Virus record (IMG/VR): IMGVR_UViG_2703719355_000021
Source: a virus
Lineage: Duplodnaviria; Heunggongvirae; Uroviricota; Caudoviricetes
DNA: 35,247 nt
Reading direction: 5' to 3' (one strand)
A program made the translations under genes and the position numbers. Of the stretch, positions 7,632-29,475 are shown piece after piece. The notes under the pieces were generated by a model. The model searched no databases, was not told where the DNA came from, and worked only from the letters and a program-made list of their open reading frames with translations. Position 1 is the stretch's first letter, and every line of letters begins with the position of its first letter.

Positions 7632-7668
7632 AACCGCTAATGGTCAGATTAGCGGTTATTTTGTTTTC
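7632..7668. terminator. bidirectional intrinsic terminator between convergent U and invertase genes
   Basis: aaccgctaat-ggtcag-attagcggtt perfect 10 bp stem followed by attttgtttt; it sits between the U stop and the invertase stop. Confidence 0.6.
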
Positions 7669-8243
7669 TGACTCTTCTCTATTGTTCCGCTTGATTCTCC
7701 TGCGGGGTGGTAACGATAAATCGTCGATGTACCAATGCCGTAAATTATTGCCAGTTGTTTTCTGTCGTGACCGTTTTTAATCAGCCTTGCTATTTGCTCA
7801 TGCTGTTCTTTTGTCAGCTTCGGGCGACGTCCGCCTGTGCGCCCCCGTGCGCGCGCTGCTGCCAGTCCGGCCAGTGTACGTTCAACGATTAATTCACGTT
7901 CCATTTCAGCCAGGGCACCCATAACGTGGAAGAAAAAACGCCCCATTGGAGAAGATGTATCTATGCTGTCGGTCAGACTGCGAAAATTAATCCCTCGCTC
8001 CTGTAGTTCCCCGACGAGAGAAATCAGATGTTTCATGCTTCGCCCGAGGCGATCCAGTTTCCAGACAACCAGCGTGTCACCTTTTTGAAGGCGCTTTAAA
8101 GCGCGTTTTAATCCCGGTCGGTCTGTCTTTGTCCCGCTTAATTTATCTTCAAATATTTGTTCACATCCTGCACAAACAAGAGCGTTTCGTTGCAGGTCTG
8201 TATTCTGGTCATTTGTTGATACCCTTACATAGCCAATCAGCAC
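7656..8243 (-). CDS. Gin/Pin/Hin-family serine DNA invertase
   Basis: Near-identical in pattern to Mu Gin (LIGYVRVSTNDQNTDLQRNALVCAGCEQIFEDKLSGT...); catalytic Ser in VRVSTNDQ; C-terminal HTH. Start taken as GTG at 8243 (GGGAGA ribosome-binding site); the track begins at a TTG at 8261. Confidence 0.92.
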   Translation of the reverse strand: MLIGYVRVSTNDQNTDLQRNALVCAGCEQIFEDKLSGTKTDRPGLKRALKRLQKGDTLVVWKLDRLGRSMKHLISLVGELQERGINFRSLTDSIDTSSPMGRFFFHVMGALAEMERELIVERTLAGLAAARARGRTGGRRPKLTKEQHEQIARLIKNGHDRKQLAIIYGIGTSTIYRYHPAGESSGTIEKSQKTK

Positions 8244-8314
8244 GCTGAATCTCCCGTCCAAAAGCGTAAATCATGCCATGCAGGTCAGAAACGGCCATTA
8301 TCTAAAACCTCGGT

Positions 8315-9262
8315 TTGCAGGAAACGATAAATCAGGCTTCAGGCGCATTGCAGAAAAACCAGAACGGCGCAGATATTCCAGGAAAAGATACCTTCACAAA
8401 AAATATTGGTGCATGTCGCGCTTTTCACAGTTCTATTAGTACAGGTGCAGGGAACTGGACGACGGCACAATTGATTGAATGGCTGGATTCTCAAGGGGCA
8501 TTCAATCACCCATACTGGATGTGCAAATGTTCATGGTCATACGGCAATAATAAAATTATTACCGATACTGGCTGTGGAACTATTCATCTTGCAGGTTGCG
8601 TTATTGAGGTTATGGGTAATAAAGGTGCCATGACCATCCGTGTAACCACCCCGAGCACTTCCAGCGGTGGCGGAACTACTAATGCACAATTTACTTATAT
8701 AAACCATGGCGCAGATTACGCCCCAGGCTGGCGGCGCGACTACAGCACAAAAAACCAGCAACCTGCATTTGCTTTAGGGCAAACAGGAAGCAGGGTTGCA
8801 AATGATAAAGCTGTTGGCTGGAACTGGAATAGCGGCGTTTATGATGCAGATATCAGTGGCGCATCGACATTAATCCTCCACTTCAATATGAATGCGGGGA
8901 GTTGCCCTGCTGTACAGTTCCGCGTGAATTATAAGAACGGCGGTATCTTTTATCGTTCAGCGCGTGATGGTTATGGCTTTGAAGCTGACTGGTCAGAGTT
9001 TTACACCACAACCCGCAAACCCTCTGCGGGGGATGTTGGTGCATATACGCAGGCAGAATGTAACTCAAGGTTTATTACAGGTATTCGCCTTGGCGGTCTG
9101 TCATCTGTTCAGACATGGAATGGTCCCGGCTGGTCTGACAGGTCAGGTTATGTCGTTACGGGTTCAGTTAACGGAAACCGTGATGAATTAATTGATACAA
9201 CACAGGCAAGGCCAATTCAGTATTGCATTAATGGGACGTGGTATAACGCGGGGAGTATTTAA
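8315..9262 (+). CDS. alternative (currently unexpressed) tail-fibre C-terminal variable segment
   Basis: The ORF begins inside the crossover site with ...LQET, the same residues found in gene H at the other site ([11 protein letters not shown]). It has no start codon of its own, so it would be fused to the H constant region after inversion. Confidence 0.8.
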   Translation: MQETINQASGALQKNQNGADIPGKDTFTKNIGACRAFHSSISTGAGNWTTAQLIEWLDSQGAFNHPYWMCKCSWSYGNNKIITDTGCGTIHLAGCVIEVMGNKGAMTIRVTTPSTSSGGGTTNAQFTYINHGADYAPGWRRDYSTKNQQPAFALGQTGSRVANDKAVGWNWNSGVYDADISGASTLILHFNMNAGSCPAVQFRVNYKNGGIFYRSARDGYGFEADWSEFYTTTRKPSAGDVGAYTQAECNSRFITGIRLGGLSSVQTWNGPGWSDRSGYVVTGSVNGNRDELIDTTQARPIQYCINGTWYNAGSI

Positions 9263-9264
9263 CG

Positions 9265-9798
9265 ATGATGCACTTAAAAAACATTACTGCTGGCAACCCT
9301 AAAACAAAAGAGCAATACCAGCTAACAAAGCAATTTAACATCAAATGGCTTTATTCAGATGATGGAAAAAACTGGTATGAGGAACAAAAGAATTTCCAGC
9401 CAGACACTTTGAAAATGGTCTATGACCATAACGGCGTTATTATTTGTATTGAAAAGGATGTTTCAGCAATTAATCCAGAAGGCGCAAGCGTCGTTGAGGT
9501 TCCTGATATTACAGCAAATCGCCGGGCTGATATTTCGGGGAAATGGATGTTCAAAGATGGCGTAGTGATAAAGCGAACTTACACCGAGGAAGAGCAGAGG
9601 CAACAAGCGGAAAATGAAAAGCAAAGCCTGTTGCAACTTGTCAGGGATAAAACCCAGCTATGGGACTCACAGCTACGGCTGGGCATCATTTCCGACGAGA
9701 ATAAACAAAAATTAACCGAGTGGATGCTCTATGCGCAGAAAGTCGAATCCACAGACACCTCCAGCCTGCCAGTAACGTTTCCCGAACAACCTGAATGA
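9265..9798 (+). CDS. tail fibre assembly protein (alternative copy)
   Basis: 177 aa, N-terminus MMHLKNITAGNPKT...[13 protein letters not shown] paralogous to the minus-strand copy at 9827-10354. Confidence 0.85.
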   Translation: MMHLKNITAGNPKTKEQYQLTKQFNIKWLYSDDGKNWYEEQKNFQPDTLKMVYDHNGVIICIEKDVSAINPEGASVVEVPDITANRRADISGKWMFKDGVVIKRTYTEEEQRQQAENEKQSLLQLVRDKTQLWDSQLRLGIISDENKQKLTEWMLYAQKVESTDTSSLPVTFPEQPE

Positions 9799-9802
9799 GA
9801 CA

Positions 9803-9822
9803 AGGCCCGATATCGGGCCTTA
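9803..9822. terminator. bidirectional hairpin between the convergent fibre-assembly genes
   Basis: aaggcccgatatcgggcctt perfect palindrome followed by a T-run on the plus strand. Confidence 0.55.
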
Positions 9823-9826
9823 ATTT

Positions 9827-10354
9827 TTATTCAGGCTTTTGTGGCCATTCAGGATTTGCCGTATCCACACGGCTGACCAGAACACTGTAGCGTTCCCATG
9901 ACTCCAGTCGTGCGCGTTCCTCATCCGTCGCCATATTCAGCCTGACGGCGCGTTCCAGTGGCTGAATAACGCTTTCTGCTTCGGAAATTAACGCGGCCTT
10001 TTGTGATTCGGCCTGTTGTTGCAGTTCCTGTTCTGTATATTCCCTCTTTACTACTTTACCATCCAGAAACATCCATTTTCCGTTATTGTCTGCGCGACGA
10101 TTTGCCGTAATATCAGGAACTTCAACTATGCTTAGCCCTTCAGGATTAATAGTTGAAACGTCTTTACTGACAGCAACGATGATGTTGTTCTCATCGTAAG
10201 CAATTTTTATGGTGTCTGGCTGAAAATTCTTTTGTTCCTCATACCAGTTCTTGCCATCTTCACAAAAGAGCCATACCACGCCCGCTTTTTTAGTTAGCTG
10301 GTATTGTTCCGGTGTTTTCGGATTCCCGGCCTTAATATTTTTCAGGTGCATCAT
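9827..10354 (-). CDS. G: tail fibre assembly protein gpG (expressed orientation)
   Basis: [14 protein letters not shown]... paralogue of 9265-9798; start taken at the tandem Met 1 nt after the H stop. Confidence 0.85.
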
Positions 10355-10355
10355 C

Positions 10356-12401
10356 TTAAACACTCCCCACGTTGTACCATATTCCCCCAATCAATTTCTG
10401 AATTGGCCTTCTGGCAACAGTGTCGACAATATCATCCGCATTGCTGTTCATTGCGGCTGTTAAAACATAACCTGACGCATCGCCAAAGCCGTAGTCGCGC
10501 CATACGTTTTTAAGTTCAATGCTGCCAAGACGAATATCCCGAACGACATGATTATGCAGCCATGTGCTTAACCAGTTGTTTTCCCACACTGAACCATAAA
10601 TATCGCCACTAGACGCGACTTGCGCACCACTTCCCAGAGTGAAACCGCCATCCCTTTTAAAGATGAAGTCACCACCACCATCTGAACCGTTATTAATATG
10701 AACACCATCACCACCGTTATCTTTCCACAAAAACATACGAATACTTCCGTCTTCGTTGGCGAATGTAATGTGGTGGCGGTAATTACTTTTTAATCTAAAA
10801 TTGCTGCCATTAGATTCAATATCTTTATAAATATGTAATCCTAACTCATCAATATGTCCTATGCGCGAACCATTTGAAAAGATGCTAATAAAACCATCTC
10901 CATCTTGCCTAAATCCGGTGTCGTTATCTCCCAGAACAATGGAGTTTTCACCCAGTGCGTTATCAGTAGCACCAATAGCTAGACCTCCTTCAATTTTGGC
11001 CCCGTGGCTGACAGATATAGCACCTGTTCTCAGATTTATAGCGAATGGCCTTAATGGGCCGATATCACCGTTTTCGCCTTGTCCTTCAGCCGTCGGAATG
11101 AAATGAAGAAAATCTTCTGAACGACGGAAAATAAGACCGAAGGCATCATTGAAAATTCGCAGCGCATTCACCGTGCCAATTTTCAGTTCTCCGGTCATTT
11201 TATCACCGGAACGCTGAACGGCGTTACCAGCCTTGTTTACCGTTTCCTGCAAACCGAGGTATTCGATAACGGCGGCAACGGTCGATTTCGCAAGAATATC
11301 CCGCCCGACTTTTGTCAGAGTTGCCAAGCTGGCGACATCATTCCCCGTAAAATACGGAAACCTGTCTGCCGCAGTAGCAAGCCCGGCCAGCGCCGTCAGG
11401 GTGGCATCTTTCGGTTGCTTACCCGCAAGCGCGTTAGTCATGGTGGTCGCAAAATTCGGGTCGTTGCCCAACGCCGCAGCCAGCTCGTTTAGCGTATTCA
11501 GTGCGTCAGGCGACGAGTCCACGAGGGCAGCGATCGCAGCCATAACGAAAGCCGTGCTTGCGATTTGGGTATTATTCGTTCCCTGTCGCGCAGTTGGCGT
11601 TGTTGGCGTTCCGGTCAACGCAGGACTGTTTAAGGGCGCTTTCTTGTTCGTTTCATCCATTACCGCCTTAACCGCTTTCGATGTCGCGGCCAGTGTTTCA
11701 GACGTGCTGTTGGTTGCACTGCTGAGCTGGACTATCCCTTTTCGTGCCGTCGTGGCGTCCTGAGCGGTATATTTTCCGTTAGCCAGGTCATACGCGGCCT
11801 TAACCGCTTTCGGCGTTGCGGCCAGCGTTTCAGAATCGCTGTTAGTGGCGCTACTGAGTTGAACAAAGCCTTTTGCGGTCAGCGAGGCATCCGGGTGACG
11901 TCGTGACTGTTCATGCTCTTTCAGTTTGTCATCCACGTAATCCACTGTGGCCATCACCATGGTGTTATCCACGGTAAGCGCCACGCTGGCAGTGCTGGAT
12001 ACGGTCAGAATGGTGCGAAATGTTTGTGCACGTCCGGACCCCTCGGCAACGGTTGGCTTGTAACTTTCGGCAGTATTGCCCACCGCGATTAAATCGCCGT
12101 GCTCATCAAATACACCAATTTCCCGGATCCAGAATCCGCCCGTTTCAGGAGGAATAACCAGCTCCGCAATAATGCGGTTCTGATGTGTTGCGTCCAGGAT
12201 GACGCGATTAACAGTGTGTCGCCACACCTCATGCACCAGACGGGTCTGCTTACTGTCTGGTGTGGGCAACGTGCCGCCACCGTCGCCCACGGCCATATGA
12301 GTCAGGCGGACAGGCTTACCATCTGGCGCGGCTGCCTGAGCTAATTTTTTTGCACCCGTATCGGTGATAACGGTTTTAAATTTTCGTGTTGTGGTACTCA
12401 T
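10356..12401 (-). CDS. H: tail fibre protein gpH (constant N-terminal part plus currently joined variable C-terminal part)
   Basis: 681 aa; N-terminus [24 protein letters not shown]..., internal repeats (ATNSxSETLAATxKAVKA twice); the crossover site lies in-frame at about 11244-11269. Confidence 0.9.
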
Positions 12402-22564: not shown

Positions 22565-23610
22565 TGAGCAGAAAAAATAAAAAAGTGCGCATGAGTTCAC
22601 GCATTGATCTCGCTGATGCGCTCAGGAAAGAATCATCGCTCAGTGCATTCACATTTGATGGTCCTTATCGCCTGACCGGGCATGACCTGCTGGACAATAT
22701 GTACTGTGCTGATAACGGGCGGTGGTATGAAACCCCGGTGGACTGGTACGGTCTGGCAAGAGCCGCCCGGCAAACGTCCTGGCATCAGTCTGCGCTTTAC
22801 TTTAAGCGCAATGTATTGCTCGGTTGCTACATCCCGCACCCGCTGCTTTCCCGGCAGGATTTCTCGGCGCTGGCGCTGGACTGGTTTGTGTTCGGTAACG
22901 CATTCCTTGAGCTTCGAAGCAATATGCTCGGCGAACCGCTAAAATTACGGCACGCCCTGGCGAAATACATGCGACGCGGAAGCGATCTTGAATCATGGTG
23001 GTATGTGCAGGATGGCAAGGATGCGTTTCAGTTTCGCCCAGGCAAAGTGTGCCACCTGATGAATCCTGACATTAACCAGGAAATCTACGGCATGCCGGAA
23101 TATCTCGGCGCATTACTCTCGGCCAGCCTGTCTCATTCGGCGGACATGTTCAGAAAACTGTATTACGACAACGGATCCCACGCCGGGTGCATCATCTACA
23201 TCGGTGCAGCGCAGGTAAACCGCGAAAGCATGGACTCCCTGAAAGAAACGCTACAGGGTGCGCGTGGTGGTGGTGCGTTTAAAAACGTGCTCATTCATGC
23301 GCCCAACGGGGGCAAAGAGGGGGTGCAAATTTTGCCGTTCCAGCAGATCACCGCAAAGGATGAGTTCATGAATGTTAAGGCGGCATCCCGTGATGATGTG
23401 CTGGCTGCGCACCGCGTTCCGCCGCAACTGATGGGGGCGATGCCGGGTGAAAAAAGTGCGTTTGGTGATGTGGAGAAGGCCGCGCGGGTTTACGCAATTA
23501 ACGAGCTGATGCCCGTCATGGAGGCCATGAAGCACATCAATGACTGGCTTGGCGAAGAGGTGATCCGCTTTAACCCTTACGCACTGTTAGACATCCAGCC
23601 CACATCCTGA
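22564..23610 (+). CDS. Q: portal protein gpQ
   Basis: 348 aa immediately after P with an ATGA-type overlap; P2 gpQ-like. Confidence 0.95.
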   Translation: MSRKNKKVRMSSRIDLADALRKESSLSAFTFDGPYRLTGHDLLDNMYCADNGRWYETPVDWYGLARAARQTSWHQSALYFKRNVLLGCYIPHPLLSRQDFSALALDWFVFGNAFLELRSNMLGEPLKLRHALAKYMRRGSDLESWWYVQDGKDAFQFRPGKVCHLMNPDINQEIYGMPEYLGALLSASLSHSADMFRKLYYDNGSHAGCIIYIGAAQVNRESMDSLKETLQGARGGGAFKNVLIHAPNGGKEGVQILPFQQITAKDEFMNVKAASRDDVLAAHRVPPQLMGAMPGEKSAFGDVEKAARVYAINELMPVMEAMKHINDWLGEEVIRFNPYALLDIQPTS

Positions 23611-23636
23611 CGCGCTTCGCTTGTCTGCTGCTTCGC

Positions 23637-23661
23637 CGGGGCATAAAAAATTTATGCCCCG
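23637..23661. terminator. perfect 11 bp palindromic hairpin downstream of portal gene Q
   Basis: cggggcataaa-aaa-tttatgccccg about 27 bp after the Q stop; no clear T-run, so it may be a terminator or a protein-binding site. Confidence 0.45.
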
Positions 23662-24034
23662 ACTCTCCAGCTCCTGTATCAATCAGATAATTTCACGACG
23701 CTTTTCTGCTTATTGCCATCATCGGCGGTCAGACTCTTACGCAATCCCACCGCATTGACTGCATGTTCTCGCCGCCTCAGTGCGATTTTGACGGCCTTAC
23801 CTTTCACCCCATCAAATCAGAATCCCTCACGTATTCTTCACGCTCAGCGTGAGAAATACAGCCATTCTGTTGTGTCGCTGCGACATCGTTCAGGGGATGC
23901 TATTTACCCCCTGAAACGCGGGCTGTTCCCCCGTCACCTGCGCGCAGAAAAAGCGCGTTTTTTTGTGCACGCACGGATCCTTGACGGATCCAGCCGCCAC
24001 GCGGGCCGGAAGGGCAAAAAGTCGTTCAAAAAAA

Positions 24035-24061
24035 TTGTGCAAATTTGTGCACTATTGTGCA
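24035..24061. repeat. three TTGTGCA direct repeats at exact 10 bp phasing
   Basis: attgtgcaa / atttgtgcac / tattgtgcag; a fourth copy about 70 bp upstream (about 23963); lies in the Q-to-accessory gap where cos is expected. Confidence 0.5.
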
Positions 24062-24101
24062 GCAGGGCGATGCGCGATTATCGCCCTGGTTTGAGAGGAA
24101 A

Positions 24102-24641
24102 TCAGGTGTTCTTTTTACCTTCTGTCAGTGGGCATAACCATCCACTATTTACATCACTTAGCTGATGCGTTCTTTCCTCGTGCTTCTCCTGCCACAATGC
24201 TTTTCCGCCAGCCTTTATGATGGCTCTTTCAACATCCCGCTCGTATCGCAAGGGCTGAAATACGTCATTAATGAAATATTCGCTTATGTCCGGAAGCGAT
24301 ACTGCAAAATTATTTGTTTGTTGCGCCGTCCTGCTATGCAGCAAAGCGGCATACTTTAATGCGTCCTGTGCTTTCTGGAATTTAAGTGCATAGTCAGTGG
24401 CGATTTTTTCCAGTTCAGCGATGCGTTTTTTTGCTGTTTCCAGTTCATCCAGCAGTGCCAGCATGTCTTCCGGTCCAGCCAGAATTCTGAAGGTGTTGAT
24501 CGCGTCAATATCCACACCGTAATCTTTAAGTTCCTGTTCGCTTAACAAATCATCATCAACTGGCAATATTAACAGGCGTTCCATTGCCGGAATTGCACGT
24601 TCTGCTGCCATTTGTAGTGCCTGATAGTCAATTTTGCTCAC
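24102..24641 (-). CDS. Ead/Ea22-like family protein (paralogue 2)
   Basis: MSKIDYQALQMAAERA... N-terminus and ALLDELETAKKRIAELE coiled-coil motif typical of Ea22-like proteins; start overlaps the stop of the upstream paralogue (ATGA). Confidence 0.8.
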   Translation of the reverse strand: MSKIDYQALQMAAERAIPAMERLLILPVDDDLLSEQELKDYGVDIDAINTFRILAGPEDMLALLDELETAKKRIAELEKIATDYALKFQKAQDALKYAALLHSRTAQQTNNFAVSLPDISEYFINDVFQPLRYERDVERAIIKAGGKALWQEKHEERTHQLSDVNSGWLCPLTEGKKNT

Positions 24642-25237
24642 TGGCTGCCTCCTTTGCGAAGCTCTGCGGCGAAATATACAGCTGCGGAAACAATAGCTGC
24701 ATGTCGGTATTCATCATCAGAAAATAAAGAATCTCCCTTAAGTGCATTGACGATACTCTGATGATTTTTTGCCAGCATCTCCACGCCCTGCGCCCGTACT
24801 TCAGCCAGAAAAGCGTCGGTGGCTGGGGTTTGTGGCATTCCTCCGTCTGTTGCGCAGATATACGCGTCAGATATTTCATCCTGCTCTCCATCAAATACAT
24901 AGCAACTGCCCCTGATAAACAGCTTCATTGCGGCATTCTCCGCTGCCAGCTCCGTGAAATTAGCCTCCAGCTCTGCAATGCGTTTGCTTTGGGCTTCTCG
25001 TTCATCCAACAGAGCCTGCACTACTTCAGGGTTGAAAGCTGCGATATAACGAGCGTTGTTCTCTGCGTTTTTCTGTTCGTCGAATCCAGGCCAGTCGACA
25101 ATATCTCCGTGATGATTATCTCCTGGTGTGTGCACGGCGTACGTGCCGTATTTGCCCGGCGAAATAAATGCGACCCATTCGCCCTGTGTTGCCTGTTTTG
25201 CTAACTCACGCAGTGCCTGATAGTTGATTTCGCTCAT
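24638..25237 (-). CDS. Ead/Ea22-like family protein (paralogue 1)
   Basis: MSEINYQALRELAKQATQGEW... and ALLDEREAQSKRIAELE; AAGGAG ribosome-binding site. Confidence 0.8.
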   Translation of the reverse strand: MSEINYQALRELAKQATQGEWVAFISPGKYGTYAVHTPGDNHHGDIVDWPGFDEQKNAENNARYIAAFNPEVVQALLDEREAQSKRIAELEANFTELAAENAAMKLFIRGSCYVFDGEQDEISDAYICATDGGMPQTPATDAFLAEVRAQGVEMLAKNHQSIVNALKGDSLFSDDEYRHAAIVSAAVYFAAELRKGGSQ

Positions 25238-25300
25238 TAAGTCGGTCTCCTTGTTTATGTTCTGAGGTGGAGATCAGGGCGAACTCGCCCTGACGTTGTG

Positions 25301-25612
25301 TTATTCGGGAAATAACGCCCGGATATTTCCGGCCATCTGACTGGTTATCTGTGCGGTTGGTGCTGGCTGTGGCACGGGGCGTTCTGTCCTGGTTTGTGTC
25401 ACTGATAACGCCTCGCCATCAGCCCATGCAGCCAGTCGGTAAGCCTCTGCCGGATTCATTTTCAGAAGTGCCAGCCCGGCCAGAAAAGCCACGCGTTGGC
25501 TGCTTTTGCGGGCTTCTGGTGTAAGGCTGTCCAGCCAGGCGCATGCTTCGCTTTCGTTCTTGACGGCGGCGGGCTTCAGATAGAAACTTATCCGTCTGGT
25601 TGGTGTCGTCAT
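25301..25612 (-). CDS. parR: ParR-like centromere-binding partition adaptor
   Basis: Internal start MTTPTRRISFYLKPAAV...LDSLTPEARKSSQRVAFLAGLALL...IRALFPE matches recalled plasmid R1 ParR (RRTIAFKLNPDV...LDSIPQGERSRLNRAALTAGLALY...LRSLFPK); AAGGAG ribosome-binding site embedded in the parM 3' end. Confidence 0.75.
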   Translation of the reverse strand: MTTPTRRISFYLKPAAVKNESEACAWLDSLTPEARKSSQRVAFLAGLALLKMNPAEAYRLAAWADGEALSVTQTRTERPVPQPAPTAQITSQMAGNIRALFPE

Positions 25613-25616
25613 TGGT

Positions 25617-26576
25617 TTACTCCTTGTCCATTGCGTACAGCCCATTAACCAGAGCAAACTGTGGCACCCCGTCCGCGATGAAAGTCGCATTAACTCCGCA
25701 GGCTTCGCGGATAGCGGGTGCCACAATCTCCGCCCCGCCACCGACAACCATCACCCGCCCGTAACCCGAAAAACCCGCCAGTGCGCGGATTACGCGTTGT
25801 TTCAGTGTTTCTTCCTTTTCACGAATAACCGCCATCAGGCTGGCGTAATGCGCGTCATTGTGGATGTGCTGGCGCAGCCAGGCTTCATCATGGCGATGTT
25901 CGATAATGGTATTGGCGATGTGGTGACTGGTACGCATACCGTTAGTGGCCATCACCGACAGTACGGCATCGGCCATCAGGGAAACGCCTACGTGTGGATC
26001 GCAAAACACCTGGCTGATACCTGCCAGTTGTCCCTGAACCTTTGCCACATCCAGCGTGGTTCCGCCTAAATCCACAATCAGCAGGGATTCAAACGGACTC
26101 ATGTCAGCCAGTGCTTTAAAACCAGCCGGTATGGATTCAGGCATAACCCGTACGTTACGGATAGTGAATGCTTTTCCGTTCTGGTACGCCACCGGGCGCA
26201 TGACGTTTGCTTTTTTGCGGTTGATGTTGGCCATGTCCGGCTGTGCGTTTGTGTCGAAATACTCGCTCAGTGGCAGGGTGACAACCACATCCACCTCCTG
26301 TGGCGTGATGCCTGATTTGACCAGCGCGTGATGAATGGCAATGACATTCACATCGCTGTACTGGTATTGCGTGTCGGTCGTCTGGACAAAGCGATCGCTG
26401 ACCGGATCAAAACCATAGCGCACGCCATCAAGCATGTAGTTCGCGGGCTGCGTGCCACCGAACGGCGCAGACCATTCCGACTTGAAGCTGTTCGGGCTGA
26501 TGGCGTTGCGGCGTTCGCCGTTCTCAGTCCATGCCAGCTTGATGTTGGTGGAGCCGTCGTCGATACAAATTCTCAT
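25617..26576 (-). CDS. parM: ParM/StbA-family actin-like segregation ATPase
   Basis: MRICIDDGSTNIKLAW...ISPNSFKSEW...YQYSDVNVIAIHHAL...VDVVVTLPL closely parallels R1 ParM (MLVFIDDGSTNIKLQW...ISPNSFKREW...WQYSDVNVVAVHHAL...); AAGGAAAA ribosome-binding site. Confidence 0.9.
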   Translation of the reverse strand: MRICIDDGSTNIKLAWTENGERRNAISPNSFKSEWSAPFGGTQPANYMLDGVRYGFDPVSDRFVQTTDTQYQYSDVNVIAIHHALVKSGITPQEVDVVVTLPLSEYFDTNAQPDMANINRKKANVMRPVAYQNGKAFTIRNVRVMPESIPAGFKALADMSPFESLLIVDLGGTTLDVAKVQGQLAGISQVFCDPHVGVSLMADAVLSVMATNGMRTSHHIANTIIEHRHDEAWLRQHIHNDAHYASLMAVIREKEETLKQRVIRALAGFSGYGRVMVVGGGAEIVAPAIREACGVNATFIADGVPQFALVNGLYAMDKE

Positions 26577-26605
26577 CTCGATTTTCCTTATGTTGATTAA
26601 TTAAT

Positions 26606-26720
26606 CGTTTACGGGATTCTGAAATCCCGTTTTTGCCTGTTTTGTGCGCGCTTCACATATCGCTGCGCGTTTTTTGCTCATTTACGGGATTTGTGAATCC
26701 CGTTTCTGTCTGTTTTTTGT
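26606..26720. repeat. two ~40 bp direct repeats, each with a palindrome (acgggatt-N5-aatcccgt), upstream of parM: candidate parC centromere/operator
   Basis: cgtttacgggattctgaaatcccgtttttgcctgtttt (about 26606) and catttacgggatttgtgaatcccgtttctgtctgtttt (about 26679), 73 bp apart; the second lies within the last codons of gene A. Confidence 0.5.
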
Positions 26721-29475
26721 TTCCACTGGTCAGGCCACCCCGCAGCAGGTCTGCTTTGCGGCGGGCGCGTTCAGTGGTTTCACTGATTCTCTGTGCGTGC
26801 TCTGCGTCGCGGATGGCGCGCAGCATGTCAGAAAGCACGGTAACGGGTGTTTTCATGGTGTTCTGGTCCTGCTGAAGTGTGGATGCCAGGCGTGCGGCGG
26901 CTTCAGGGTCTGATGCCCCCAGCTGTGCCAGATAGCTGGCGACCGGGTTATGGCGGATCTCCGTGCTGCTTACGCCATGATTACGGCTCAGGCGCTGCCA
27001 GAGCTGCGTGATTCGGCTGTCCGGGCGGGTATCCGGTTTGCGTACAATTTCAAATCCCTGCGGTGCAATGATGCTGCCGTCAACGTACAGACTGCCGCCC
27101 CGTAACAGGTGCTGCATCTGTTGTTCACCGATATGCAGGCCGAGAGATTCAGCAGACTCTCGCCATTCTTTAGCGAGTAATTCGTGGTTATCAGGCAAAG
27201 GCCGCTGCTGTTTGCGGCTCTGTGTCCAGCTCTGCATTTCATCACTGCTGTTTTTTGCCTGTTTGTCACGAAGCGAACGCATCAGCGCCCGGCGTTCGTG
27301 CCGTTTCAGTGAGCGCATCCATTCGTTCACTTCAACGCCGTCAGGGAGCTGCGGCCACGGTGCTGGCCGTTCTTCCGGCTGTTCTGTCCCGTTGTTGTCC
27401 GTTTCCTGTACACGGGGACAGTTATTGCCACGAGTCCAAGGGGCGGCAGGGCCGCCCTGAAGGTCAAAACCATTTTCGCGGGCGCTGTCTTCCGCTTCCG
27501 GTTTGCGTCTTACCAGCTTCCAGTTATCCGGATGCGTGCACACACGGGAGGATTCCCCGATGAGTGGTGACCAGATCCCGTAAATCTGTACGCTCTGTTC
27601 GCCGTAATCGTTCAGCTCATCGGCGAGGTCGTAGGCGGTGCGAATCAGGTAGTCTTTGCGTGGAACAAGTACGCCGCCCTGTTTCTCTATGTAGGTGGCA
27701 AAACATCCGGCATCAGCGGCGGCAAGAACCGCATCCATTGCGTCATCCTTCAGCCGTTGCGGGCCTTCCGGGTTGCGTGCCATCTGGCTGGCAAGGCGGC
27801 GCAGTTCACGCCATACCTGGCGGGAGGGGATGCCAAAGAACTGGAACTGGCGGACCCGGTGAAGGCGCGCCCAGCCGATGGCGCGTTCCACGCTCTCGGC
27901 CATTGATTTTCCGGTTTCGTGGTCAACGCGTGGCTTGCCCGTTTTCGGGTCGATGCCATCCACGGCGCGGCTGTCCAGGTTTTTCCCGATGTAGGTGGCA
28001 ATGTAGCTGGTTGGCGTGCCTTTTGAGCCGTCTACATACTCCGCCTTAAAGCGCGGAGTTATGTCATCGCCCAGCTCGTGACGATCTTCCTGAATGGCAA
28101 TATCGCGGGTGTGGGACACAATGGTGTCGATTTCTTCCGGATGAGCAAAGACCATCATATGCCAGTGCACGGTGCCGTCATGGTGAGGCTCCACCGTGCG
28201 GATGCCATACCAGCGCAGGCCGTCGCGGTTCAGTTTCTTGCGGACCGCCGCAAAAAACGTGTTAACCAGGTAATCGCTGGAGTCGCGCATGGTGGCCCCG
28301 TTCCATTTGGGGTTCGGATGACCGTTCTCCGTTGTTGCGTGGTATTTTGACGGGCAGGTGACGGTCAGAAACACCGCTCTGTCGCCACGGGCTTCGGCCA
28401 GAAGTTCCAGTCCCTTCATGGTGGCCATCATTTCTGCTTTACGGTGAACCGGGTTACTTACTCCCGCGTAATACACCGTCTCGAGATCAATCGTGAACCC
28501 GTCTTCATTTTCCAGCATGAAACTTTTCAGGAAATCGCGTGTTTTCTCGCGCTGTGCGCGAAACTCGCTTAACGCGTCCTGGCTCAGATAGGGTGATGTT
28601 TTTCTGGAAACCAGACAGGCGGCGCGGAGTTGTTCTTCTCTCCACTCGCAACGTAACAGCCACAGTTTGCGTTTCCACCATTCCGCACAGGTCAGGCGAA
28701 GGATTGCGCCCGGCAGCAGCTCCGTGTCCGGTTCGTTCCTCCGGTCTTTATCTGTTGTCAGTGCGTCATAATGTGGAGGCATGATGTGCAGGTGTAACGC
28801 CATGCGGGCCAGCATCTGATACGCCTTCAGCGTTACATCCATGGTCAGTTCGCCATCGGTCGCGCCAAAGCCATCGCAGAGTTTTTCGAAGGTGCTGCTG
28901 AACATCGCCGCCGTCATGGTGGCCAGCGTCTGTATCTGGTGTTTGTTGAGCTGCGGCAGGTAAAGCAAATCGTCCAGGCGTTCGCGTCCGGCAAGGGAGC
29001 GATAACCCGGTGTCAGCCAGTGTCCGTCAGTGCGATCCAGACGTTCGAATATTTTGCGCAGGGTTCCGCGTGCATAGCGTTCCGCCTGCCAGCTCTTTTT
29101 GCCTTTCCGGCGATCGGCTTCCTGTTTTTTGCGCAGGAAGGAGAGGTGGCGAATAAGCGGATCGCGCAGATAGGACGGCAGCAGGCGCAGCGAGGCCATG
29201 GCTTCATCCACCGCGCCGCGTGCCTGTTTTCTGGCGTCTCCTGCCAGTGTGATGGTTTTGTCCTGTTTTTCCTGTGCGTCCAGGCTTTTATTAATCAGGT
29301 TGCCCAGCGGCGTGGCGGAGAACGCCGCATCAGCCATTTCCTTGCGGCGCTCGTTCTCTGCCCGGTAGGCATCCAGCCAGGAGGAAAGCGCGGATTCAGG
29401 AGCGGGGATCCCCGTTCCTTCACGCCCCACTGCGTGGCGCGGTTGTTGCCAGTCCCTGATGTACTCTGCCGTCAT
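26653..29475 (-). CDS. A: replication initiation protein gpA (rolling-circle endonuclease family) with extended C-terminal region
   Basis: 940 aa; HHDGTVHWHMMVF-type HUH-like motif and P2/186 A-like central region; last gene of the early operon; about 180 aa longer than P2 A. Confidence 0.88.
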   Translation of the reverse strand: MTAEYIRDWQQPRHAVGREGTGIPAPESALSSWLDAYRAENERRKEMADAAFSATPLGNLINKSLDAQEKQDKTITLAGDARKQARGAVDEAMASLRLLPSYLRDPLIRHLSFLRKKQEADRRKGKKSWQAERYARGTLRKIFERLDRTDGHWLTPGYRSLAGRERLDDLLYLPQLNKHQIQTLATMTAAMFSSTFEKLCDGFGATDGELTMDVTLKAYQMLARMALHLHIMPPHYDALTTDKDRRNEPDTELLPGAILRLTCAEWWKRKLWLLRCEWREEQLRAACLVSRKTSPYLSQDALSEFRAQREKTRDFLKSFMLENEDGFTIDLETVYYAGVSNPVHRKAEMMATMKGLELLAEARGDRAVFLTVTCPSKYHATTENGHPNPKWNGATMRDSSDYLVNTFFAAVRKKLNRDGLRWYGIRTVEPHHDGTVHWHMMVFAHPEEIDTIVSHTRDIAIQEDRHELGDDITPRFKAEYVDGSKGTPTSYIATYIGKNLDSRAVDGIDPKTGKPRVDHETGKSMAESVERAIGWARLHRVRQFQFFGIPSRQVWRELRRLASQMARNPEGPQRLKDDAMDAVLAAADAGCFATYIEKQGGVLVPRKDYLIRTAYDLADELNDYGEQSVQIYGIWSPLIGESSRVCTHPDNWKLVRRKPEAEDSARENGFDLQGGPAAPWTRGNNCPRVQETDNNGTEQPEERPAPWPQLPDGVEVNEWMRSLKRHERRALMRSLRDKQAKNSSDEMQSWTQSRKQQRPLPDNHELLAKEWRESAESLGLHIGEQQMQHLLRGGSLYVDGSIIAPQGFEIVRKPDTRPDSRITQLWQRLSRNHGVSSTEIRHNPVASYLAQLGASDPEAAARLASTLQQDQNTMKTPVTVLSDMLRAIRDAEHAQRISETTERARRKADLLRGGLTSGNKKQTETGFTNPVNEQKTRSDM

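Follow-up and report, generated by a model that had tools for sequence, protein, structure and literature searches.

The 35,247-nucleotide (nt) viral DNA analysed here and called the window (IMG/VR virus record IMGVR_UViG_2703719355_000021) is a P88-like prophage of Escherichia coli (Xuanwuvirus, Peduoviridae, P2-related), and two overlapping genes on its minus strand, hereafter gene 1 and gene 2, encode proteins of the Ead/Ea22 family. Each protein combines an N-terminal module (N-module) with an exchangeable C-terminal module (C-module), and the C-module of gene 1 belongs to the EaE/Oad2 family, in which an anti-defence protein has been characterised. We lean, with modest confidence, towards reading this mosaic pair as early-expressed, coiled-coil accessory proteins that bind targets, with counter-defence as the leading candidate function.

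The sequence-only reading had described two tandem Ea22-like genes with a shared N-terminal module, and this description held: both are intact open reading frames (ORFs) on the minus strand. Gene 1 (24638-25237) starts with ATG and encodes 199 amino acids (aa), whereas gene 2 (24102-24641) starts with GTG and encodes 179 aa. Both exceed the gathering score of the Pfam family PF13935 (Ead_Ea22), which is 27 bits: gene 1 scored 90.2 bits (E 2.3e-25, with the Pfam alignment covering residues 2-105) and gene 2 scored 78.7 bits (E 8.3e-22). Gene 1 is in addition a full-length match to phrog_368, and a protein 99% identical to it carries the annotation "ead/Ea22-like family protein," the name that PGAP gives to both genes in a prophage of E. 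coli CFSAN018748 with 98.7% identity over the whole 2.2-kb stretch. The pair is already annotated and is one more case of a very common, highly recombinogenic family; what our analysis adds beyond the existing annotation is the sequence link between gene 1 and Oad2 and the conserved linker at the gene boundary.

Gene 1 consists of an Ead/Ea22 N-module (residues 1-69; 25031-25237, minus strand; MSEINYQALRELAKQATQGEWVAFISPG...NARYIAAFN), whose DNA recurs at 81-97% identity in Yersinia, HK106, Wanchaivirus, and other phages, fused to a C-module of the EaE/Oad2 type (residues 93-199; 24641-24961, minus strand) with the motifs LAAENA, TPATDAFLAEVRAQ, and LRKGGSQ. Residues 57-199 matched phrog_614 (E 1.1e-20), of which HK446 gp27 is a full-length member, and gene 2 was unmatched in this family. 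By BLASTP, gene 1 is 33% identical to HK446 gp27 (residues 55-199 with residues 26-175, E 3e-13) and 38% identical to EaE of Salmonella phage SF3 (E 5e-18), the last two proteins being 55% identical to each other; tblastn also returned genes annotated EaE or Eae. The motifs LAAENA, TPATDAFLAEVRAQ, and LRKGGNQ are common to gene 1 and to Oad2/EaE, whereas the variable inserts between them differ. The N-terminal segment of EaE-type proteins, MK.M.LIEMDGFLKGKCIPRDLKVNETNAEYL, is missing from gene 1: its Ea22 module stands in place of the ∼50 N-terminal residues of EaE, and the alignment with HK446 gp27 is weak at its start (residue 26). HK446 gp27 was named Oad2 (OLD anti-defence 2) in a July 2026 preprint (bioRxiv 10.64898/2026.07.10.737580), according to which it rescues OLD toxicity, abolishes OLD defence, directly binds OLD, and blocks tRNA cleavage by the P2 OLD tetramer. 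The same preprint (10.64898/2026.07.10.737580) describes Oad2 as EaE-related and mentions that EaE-type proteins are sometimes fused to Ead/Ea22. Judged from the alignments, gene 1 is a chimera of that kind, with an Ea22 N-module and an EaE/Oad2 C-module.

Mosaic breakpoints were read from the end-points of the BLASTP alignments of 240 homologues. For gene 1, 80 of about 220 alignments stop at residue 92 or 98, which places the main breakpoint at a shared helical junction, PEVVQALLDEREAQSKRIAELEA (residues 70-92; 24962-25030, minus strand), and a second cluster of end-points lies at residues 136-150, around TPATDAFLAEVRAQ. In gene 2, 76 alignments stop at residue 78, the last residue of the corresponding helical junction, PEDMLALLDELETAKKRIAELE (residues 57-78; 24408-24473, minus strand). 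The end-points thus cluster directly after RIAELE in both genes. The C-module of gene 2 was found joined to at least four different N-modules, the type carried by gene 1 among them, and that of gene 1 was found joined to N-termini other than Ea22 as well. Moreover, a block that runs across the gene boundary, from 64 codons before the end of gene 1 to codon 68 of gene 2, recurs at 88-92% identity in lambdoid prophages and 96-kb plasmids, with different flanks. On this alignment evidence, both genes are patchworks built by recombination at short conserved motifs. The sequence-only reading had proposed a shared scaffold with swapped effector domains; the family is indeed modular and its C-terminal parts are exchanged, but the proposal was too simple, since the N-modules are swapped too.

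Gene 2 carries a different variant of the Ead/Ea22 N-module and, at residues 79-179 (24105-24407, minus strand), a lineage-specific C-module that includes a terminal motif of ∼40 residues. This C-module had matches in only 25 cluster representatives among 1.84 billion proteins and none in Pfam, PHROG, PADLOC, NCBIfam, or the Protein Data Bank (PDB), and it is present in 162-256 of 5426 complete E. coli genomes. The terminal motif, FAVSLP..EYFINDVFQPLRYERDVERAIIKAGG (residues 111-150; 24192-24311, minus strand), follows the pattern EYFI[ND][DG]VFQPLRYERD.ERA..AGG and is also found at the C-terminal end of further mosaic phage proteins. As read from its occurrences, the module is the one normally resident in P88-like phages at the locus between the replication gene gpA and the portal gene. 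A likeness to the C-terminal domain (CTD) of lambda Ea22 that can be seen by eye (...RYERDVERAI.AAG..V.GE in gene 2, ...AGIRIKGE in lambda) was dropped as unsupported: a 9-sequence profile had no PDB match, the best being an oxidoreductase at E 2.3.

We then compared the two proteins with each other. They start with MSEINYQAL and (M)SKIDYQAL, respectively, and both contain ALLDE.E...KRIAELE within a common segment (ALLDEREAQSKRIAELE in gene 1, ALLDELETAKKRIAELE in gene 2). The shared N-terminal module noticed earlier is therefore present in both, with three residues between E and K rather than the two first reported. BLASTP aligned residues 1-98 of gene 1 with residues 1-85 of gene 2 and nothing beyond (36% identity, E 1e-7). 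Profile-profile comparison with hhalign gave a probability of 99.8% for the N-terminal halves, a control that is partly inflated by mosaic members with the N-module type of gene 1 in the gene 2 N-terminal alignment. For the C-terminal halves, hhalign detected no homology signal (probability 0.2%), with a sensitivity limited by the shallow gene 2 C-terminal profile (Neff ∼1.1). The claim that the C-terminal halves are unrelated accordingly withstood both pairwise and profile comparison. Because the two genes are no more than 72-73% identical at the DNA level within the shared segments, the pair is not a recent local duplication, and recent gene conversion between the genes is likewise ruled out.

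At the gene boundary, the stop/start overlap had been given as ATGA. The actual 4-nt overlap is GTGA, and the start codon of gene 2 is GTG (24641-24639). The 25-nt inter-cistronic linker, AAAGGAGGCAGCCAGTGAGCAAAAT (24631-24655, minus strand), contains a Shine-Dalgarno sequence, AAGGAGG (24648-24654), the TGA stop of gene 1 (24638-24640), and the GTG of gene 2 (24639-24641). The last codons of gene 1 are CGC AAA GGA GGC AGC CAG TGA (RKGGSQ*), so that AAGGAGG lies inside the KGG codons, 6 nt before the GTG. Given the common orientation, the overlap, and the strong ribosome-binding site within the upstream gene, the two genes are very probably translationally coupled, and the co-expression read from the overlap by the sequence-only reading was retained, with other letters, as a prediction.

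The same 25-nt element, AAAGGAGRCARYCAGTGAGCRARAT, was invariant in all contexts examined: in P88-like prophages, in a lambdoid prophage, in a plasmid, behind an unrelated 174-aa upstream gene, and in P22-like SF3, where EaE is followed through the identical linker by an Ea22-type gene annotated EaA. By a scan of IMG/VR, the exact linker is present in at least 120 viral contigs, and some of these hold it twice. When the proteins on either side were clustered, those upstream, which end in RKGG[NS]Q*, made up at least 10 clusters, of which several are unrelated to one another, and those downstream, which start with MS[EK]I[DN]YQ, made up at least 18. Since the same linker follows mutually unrelated upstream proteins, the C-terminal tail that they share is, as far as these comparisons tell, largely a translated ribosome-binding and coupling signal; the linker evidently travels with Ea22-type genes.

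Several individual contigs illustrate the range of contexts of this element. Two IMG/VR contigs (L041, 12093-12701; L050, 3850-4635) hold two linker copies 580-760 nt apart and so form arrays of three linked small genes. In two P88-like prophages (L020 and L021, 1338-1862), the upstream slot is occupied by an unrelated 174-aa protein with no PHROG match, whose last codons, KGDNQ*, keep the linker and the GTGA overlap with gene 2. In lambda itself (L153, 1596-1610), the GTG start of ea22 lies in the same GTGAGCGAAATTAAC motif, and the sequence upstream looks like a degraded linker. A search of the available literature found no earlier description of the linker. Conserved gene-boundary sequences in lambdoid early regions were reportedly discussed by Clark et al. 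in 2001 with the HK620 genome.

We next evaluated how common the pair is. The exact gene 2 protein occurs on 73 contigs; the 7 places shown for it come from the 24 longest contigs and all belong to this locus, with gene 1 intact in 6 of the 7 and broken in 1. A sister variant of gene 1 (P0125, 181 aa), which differs in the distal C-terminal sub-module and bears the name Salmonella enterica at NCBI, occurs on 352 contigs, and in 8 of the 8 places shown it is at this locus and paired with gene 2. The pair or a close variant of it is present in many Escherichia contigs, and probably in Salmonella too. Among 5426 complete E. coli genomes, the pair was found in only 6, and the gene 2 C-module there is usually carried by a gene of 174 aa that stands alone, starts with ATG, and has an N-module of a third kind. 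This is the lone Ea22-like gene of most P88-like prophages (174-aa P0038; Xuanwuvirus P884B11): it has the C-module of gene 2 at the same locus, is 63-64% identical to gene 2 overall, and is near-identical from RIAELEK on, whereas in the window a further gene lies upstream and the start is a coupled GTG. In lambdoid prophages and phage-plasmids, it is routine to find Ea22-like genes in tandem, overlapping by 4 nt, and one case (L017) has three such genes in succession. The idea that such a pair is unusual in a P2-type hotspot consequently found no support. Disruption of the genes in most relatives, which the sequence-only reading had named as a sign against its model, was not what we found, since they are intact in nearly all relatives and gene 1 is broken at 1 of the 7 places sampled. 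One relative (L003, 4405-5014) has gene 1 split into fragments of 48 and 83 aa next to an intact gene 2, as in decay of the upstream gene only.

These distributions bear on a stricter form of the scaffold model of the sequence-only reading: an obligate hetero-oligomer formed through the ALLDE...KRIAELE coiled coil would act as one scaffold with two effector or specificity heads. A helical segment of ∼20 residues is common to both proteins, their production is very probably coupled, and lambda Ea22 oligomerises (PMC10834534), all of which would suit such a complex. However, genes of the gene 2 type are single in most P88-like prophages or, in some prophages, sit behind the unrelated 174-aa protein, the gene 1 C-module also occurs with N-termini other than Ea22, and the helices diverge completely past the shared 20 residues. 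Because each gene occurs without the other, we consider an obligate heteromer improbable.

The genomic position of the pair was established from the annotation of the 98.7%-identical prophage together with Pfam matches on related contigs and in the window. On the coding strand, the order is the gpA replication endonuclease (26653-29475, minus strand), ParM/StbA (25617-26576, minus strand), Plasmid_stab_B (parP; 25301-25612, minus strand), gene 1, gene 2, and a spacer of ∼490 nt, followed on the opposite strand by the portal and terminase genes. At its flanks, the locus is 95-96% identical to phages P88 and P884B11, and most of the spacer between gene 2 and the portal gene is filled by a conserved non-coding block (23611-24062). 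The pair, lying between gpA-parM-parP and the portal gene, therefore occupies the old/tin hotspot slot of P2, defined as the gpA-portal slot by Rousset et al. 2022 (PMC9122126). Genes 1 and 2 form the distal end of the co-oriented gpA-parM-parP string (25301-29475, minus strand).

Gene 1 has a Shine-Dalgarno sequence of its own, AAGGAGA (25246-25252, minus strand), read from the sequence 8 nt before the ATG. A consensus scan, which cannot exclude a promoter, showed no sigma-70-like site on the minus strand within 23500-26700. Downstream of gene 2, two hairpins followed by a T-run (AATTTTTTTG; 24037-24086, minus strand) likely mark the end of the transcription unit; the terminator-like site at 24052 to 24037 came from the consensus scan, and the second hairpin (24065-24086) was recognised by inspection of the sequence. 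As no promoter-like site precedes gene 1 and terminator-like hairpins follow gene 2, the pair is most simply read as closing the early replication operon at its distal end. Between parP and gene 1, in a gap of 63 nt, lies a GC-rich hairpin, TCAGGGCG-AACT-CGCCCTGA (25274-25293), with no T-run on the coding (minus) strand; it might serve in RNA stability or processing, or act as a partial attenuator. No RNA family was found by Rfam in 23400-25800.

The location, exactly in the gpA-portal hotspot, and the variable content of the locus among relatives are what one would expect of a prophage defence or superinfection-exclusion system, the typical cargo of this slot in P2 (old, tin, and the systems of Rousset et al.). 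The pair shares with this cargo the slot between replication gene A and the portal gene and its hypervariable content (PMC9122126), but it has no similarity to old, tin, or any PADLOC model: gene 1 had no PADLOC match, and the best match of gene 2 was CARF3 at a nonsignificant E of 0.041. NCBIfam gave zero matches for the two proteins, and no enzymatic or sensor domain was detected in either. Furthermore, the pair appears to be part of an early operon rather than a separately expressed prophage gene, and the same modules and linker occur in the early "ea"/exo-xis regions of lambdoid and P22-like phages. The sole characterised relative of the gene 1 C-module is an anti-defence protein, and the nearest functional relative of the pair inhibits the very defence protein that P2 has in this slot. 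In view of the absence of PADLOC matches, of the lack of a private promoter in the scan, and of the same cassettes in the early regions of other phages, we regard a defence system as quite improbable.

Three faint similarities were judged to be chance. These were the CARF3 match just mentioned, a match to DUF3110 (E 0.16), and a phmmer match of gene 1 residues 86-159 (24761-24982) to the C1 domain of mammalian adenylate cyclase V (E 0.018), in which gene 1 has Ser at the position of the metal-binding Asp and the alignment spans no more than part of the fold.

We also compared the pair with lambda Ea22, which is a tetramer (PMC10834534). By BLASTP, gene 1 aligns with it over residues 1-21 (67% identity) and gene 2 over residues 1-98 (31% identity), and in both proteins the N-terminal segment of the lambda type (MSEIN.QALREAAE) is followed by a coiled-coil region, for which AlphaFold2 predicted long helices. 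The likeness extends to the MSEIN.QALRE.AE motif, to the GTG start of the gene 2 type in a GTGAGC.AAAT motif, to the LLDE.E junction followed by a long helix, to an accessory position in an early operon, and to an exchangeable CTD. In contrast, neither protein of the pair has a CTD related to that of lambda Ea22, and the host phage is P2-related, with the genes at the gpA-portal locus instead of the exo-xis region. Indeed, the lambda-type dimeric alpha/beta CTD (HRYYGVGG loop, ...AGIRIKGE end) was not found in either protein: BLASTP alignments stop in the N-terminal part, and PDB sequence searches of both proteins were empty.

Lambda and Stx-phage Ea22 favour lysogeny despite their different C-terminal domains (PMC7093339, PMC10834534). 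An early product that biases the phage towards lysogeny, or dampens induction, through a host partner would thus account for the N-module and the part of the helix that both proteins share with lambda Ea22 (E 4e-6 and 1e-5) and for a position at the end of an early operon that parallels that of ea22 in the pL operon. However, the similarity to lambda Ea22 covers only ∼20-75 N-terminal residues, the lambda CTD is absent with no PDB match for the proteins or for the gene 2 motif profile, and the P2-like circuit (Cox/C-type repressor) differs from that of lambda, where the mechanism is itself unexplained. A role in lysis-lysogeny modulation is also compatible with counter-defence, which could show as altered survival or lysogeny as well. 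Taking both sides into account, we hold such modulation to be fairly unlikely as the function of the pair.

In the counter-defence reading that we prefer, the pair would be transcribed with the early replication operon, and its translation would be coupled. AlphaFold2, run on family alignments, predicted a helix at residues 70-111 of gene 1 and 57-108 of gene 2; such helices may oligomerise as in tetrameric lambda Ea22 (PMC10834534) and, by that analogy, would present the C-modules multivalently. The C-modules would act by binding, and so neutralising, factors of the host or of a resident prophage. In the case of gene 1, the relationship to Oad2 makes an OLD-type or other abortive-infection nuclease the leading candidate target, which would imply counter-defence rather than defence. 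The arrangement may have arisen by recombination with lambdoid or P22-like "ea" regions at conserved junction motifs. Conservation also counts in favour of this reading, with both genes unbroken in nearly all relatives sampled and a dN/dS of 0.4-0.7.

A number of observations weigh against this reading. The cargo of the P2 gpA-portal hotspot classically consists of defence genes expressed from the prophage, not of counter-defence genes, and the promoter and terminator calls that place the pair in an early operon are consensus scans alone. OLD inhibition is not general to the EaE family, as an HK75 homologue that shares 54% identity with Oad2 is inactive against OLD (10.64898/2026.07.10.737580), and for gene 1, which is only 33% identical to Oad2 and lacks the ∼50 N-terminal residues of the latter, it is at most a candidate activity. 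The parts conserved between the two proteins are short motifs, one of which, RKGGNQ, owes part of its conservation to the ribosome-binding site embedded in it. The guess that gene 1 inhibits an OLD-type or other abortive-infection nuclease is thus weakened on three counts: Oad2 has a narrow specificity, gene 1 is only 33% identical to it, and the N-terminus of gene 1 is of another type. The AlphaFold2 models are of low confidence (pLDDT 57.4 and 60.4), and Foldseek against the PDB returned nothing at E ≤ 0.001, only generic helical hairpins and coiled coils. Finally, the dN/dS of 0.4-0.7 is based on few substitutions and indicates weak constraint only.

This relatively high dN/dS, together with the extreme mosaicism and the broken gene 1 in one relative, would also suit neutral passengers, that is, by-products of frequent recombination at conserved linkers that are kept as costless. 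Yet frames are intact and ribosome-binding sites good in almost all contigs sampled, from Escherichia and probably Salmonella, and one family member, Oad2, has a demonstrated function. We deem it very unlikely that the two genes are mere passengers.

Further features of the window are recorded here. The conserved block after the portal gene (23611-24062, ∼450 nt) is 94-96% conserved among P88-like and Gemsvirus phages and lies at the position of cos in P2, and it contains a terminator-like hairpin on the plus strand (23940-23958). The 19-nt core of P2 cos is absent from the window even with 3 mismatches allowed; by analogy of position, we place cos provisionally in this block. Between the block and the portal gene, four relatives (L001, 3410-3934; L008, 6107-6631; L013 and L014, 6091-6615) have an extra 174-aa ORF, annotated "hypothetical protein" and with no Pfam family on record, which marks a second small variable slot next to the Ea22 locus. 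The partition-type genes ParM/StbA and Plasmid_stab_B (25301-26576), directly after gpA, are kept in all P88-like relatives seen, although the phage is integrated in the chromosome. Farther away, a serine invertase of the Hin/Gin type (7656-8261, minus strand) adjoins two opposed sets of tail-fibre tip and tail-fibre assembly (Caudo_TAP) genes (8315-9798, plus strand; 9827-12401, minus strand), and the whole (7656-12401) resembles the invertible segments that set the host range of Mu or P1.

The conserved boundary has consequences for the annotation of this family. The RKGGNQ*/GTG linker accounts for the common tail of unrelated proteins, which calls for caution before that motif is termed functional, and it provides a simple sequence handle with which arrays of Ea22-type genes can be enumerated. 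We tentatively suggest, as an idea that is less probable than its converse, that the linker is more than a ribosome-binding site and serves as a portable cassette joint: with this short translated sequence, temperate phages of enterobacteria (lambdoid, P22-like, phage-plasmids, and P88-like) would assemble small early genes into arrays ready for expression and trade them among one another, in an integron-like manner but without an integrase. In P88-like phages, it would have delivered an Oad2-type counter-defence module into the very slot that holds OLD in P2. If so, the gpA-portal hotspot would hold weapons of both sides of the phage-phage conflict.

The link to Oad2 makes gene 1, otherwise a gene of unknown function, a directly testable candidate counter-defence gene. 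A P2-type hotspot that is usually mined for defence systems may thus carry early-expressed candidate counter-defence cargo, which, if true, would matter for predictions that rest on guilt by association.

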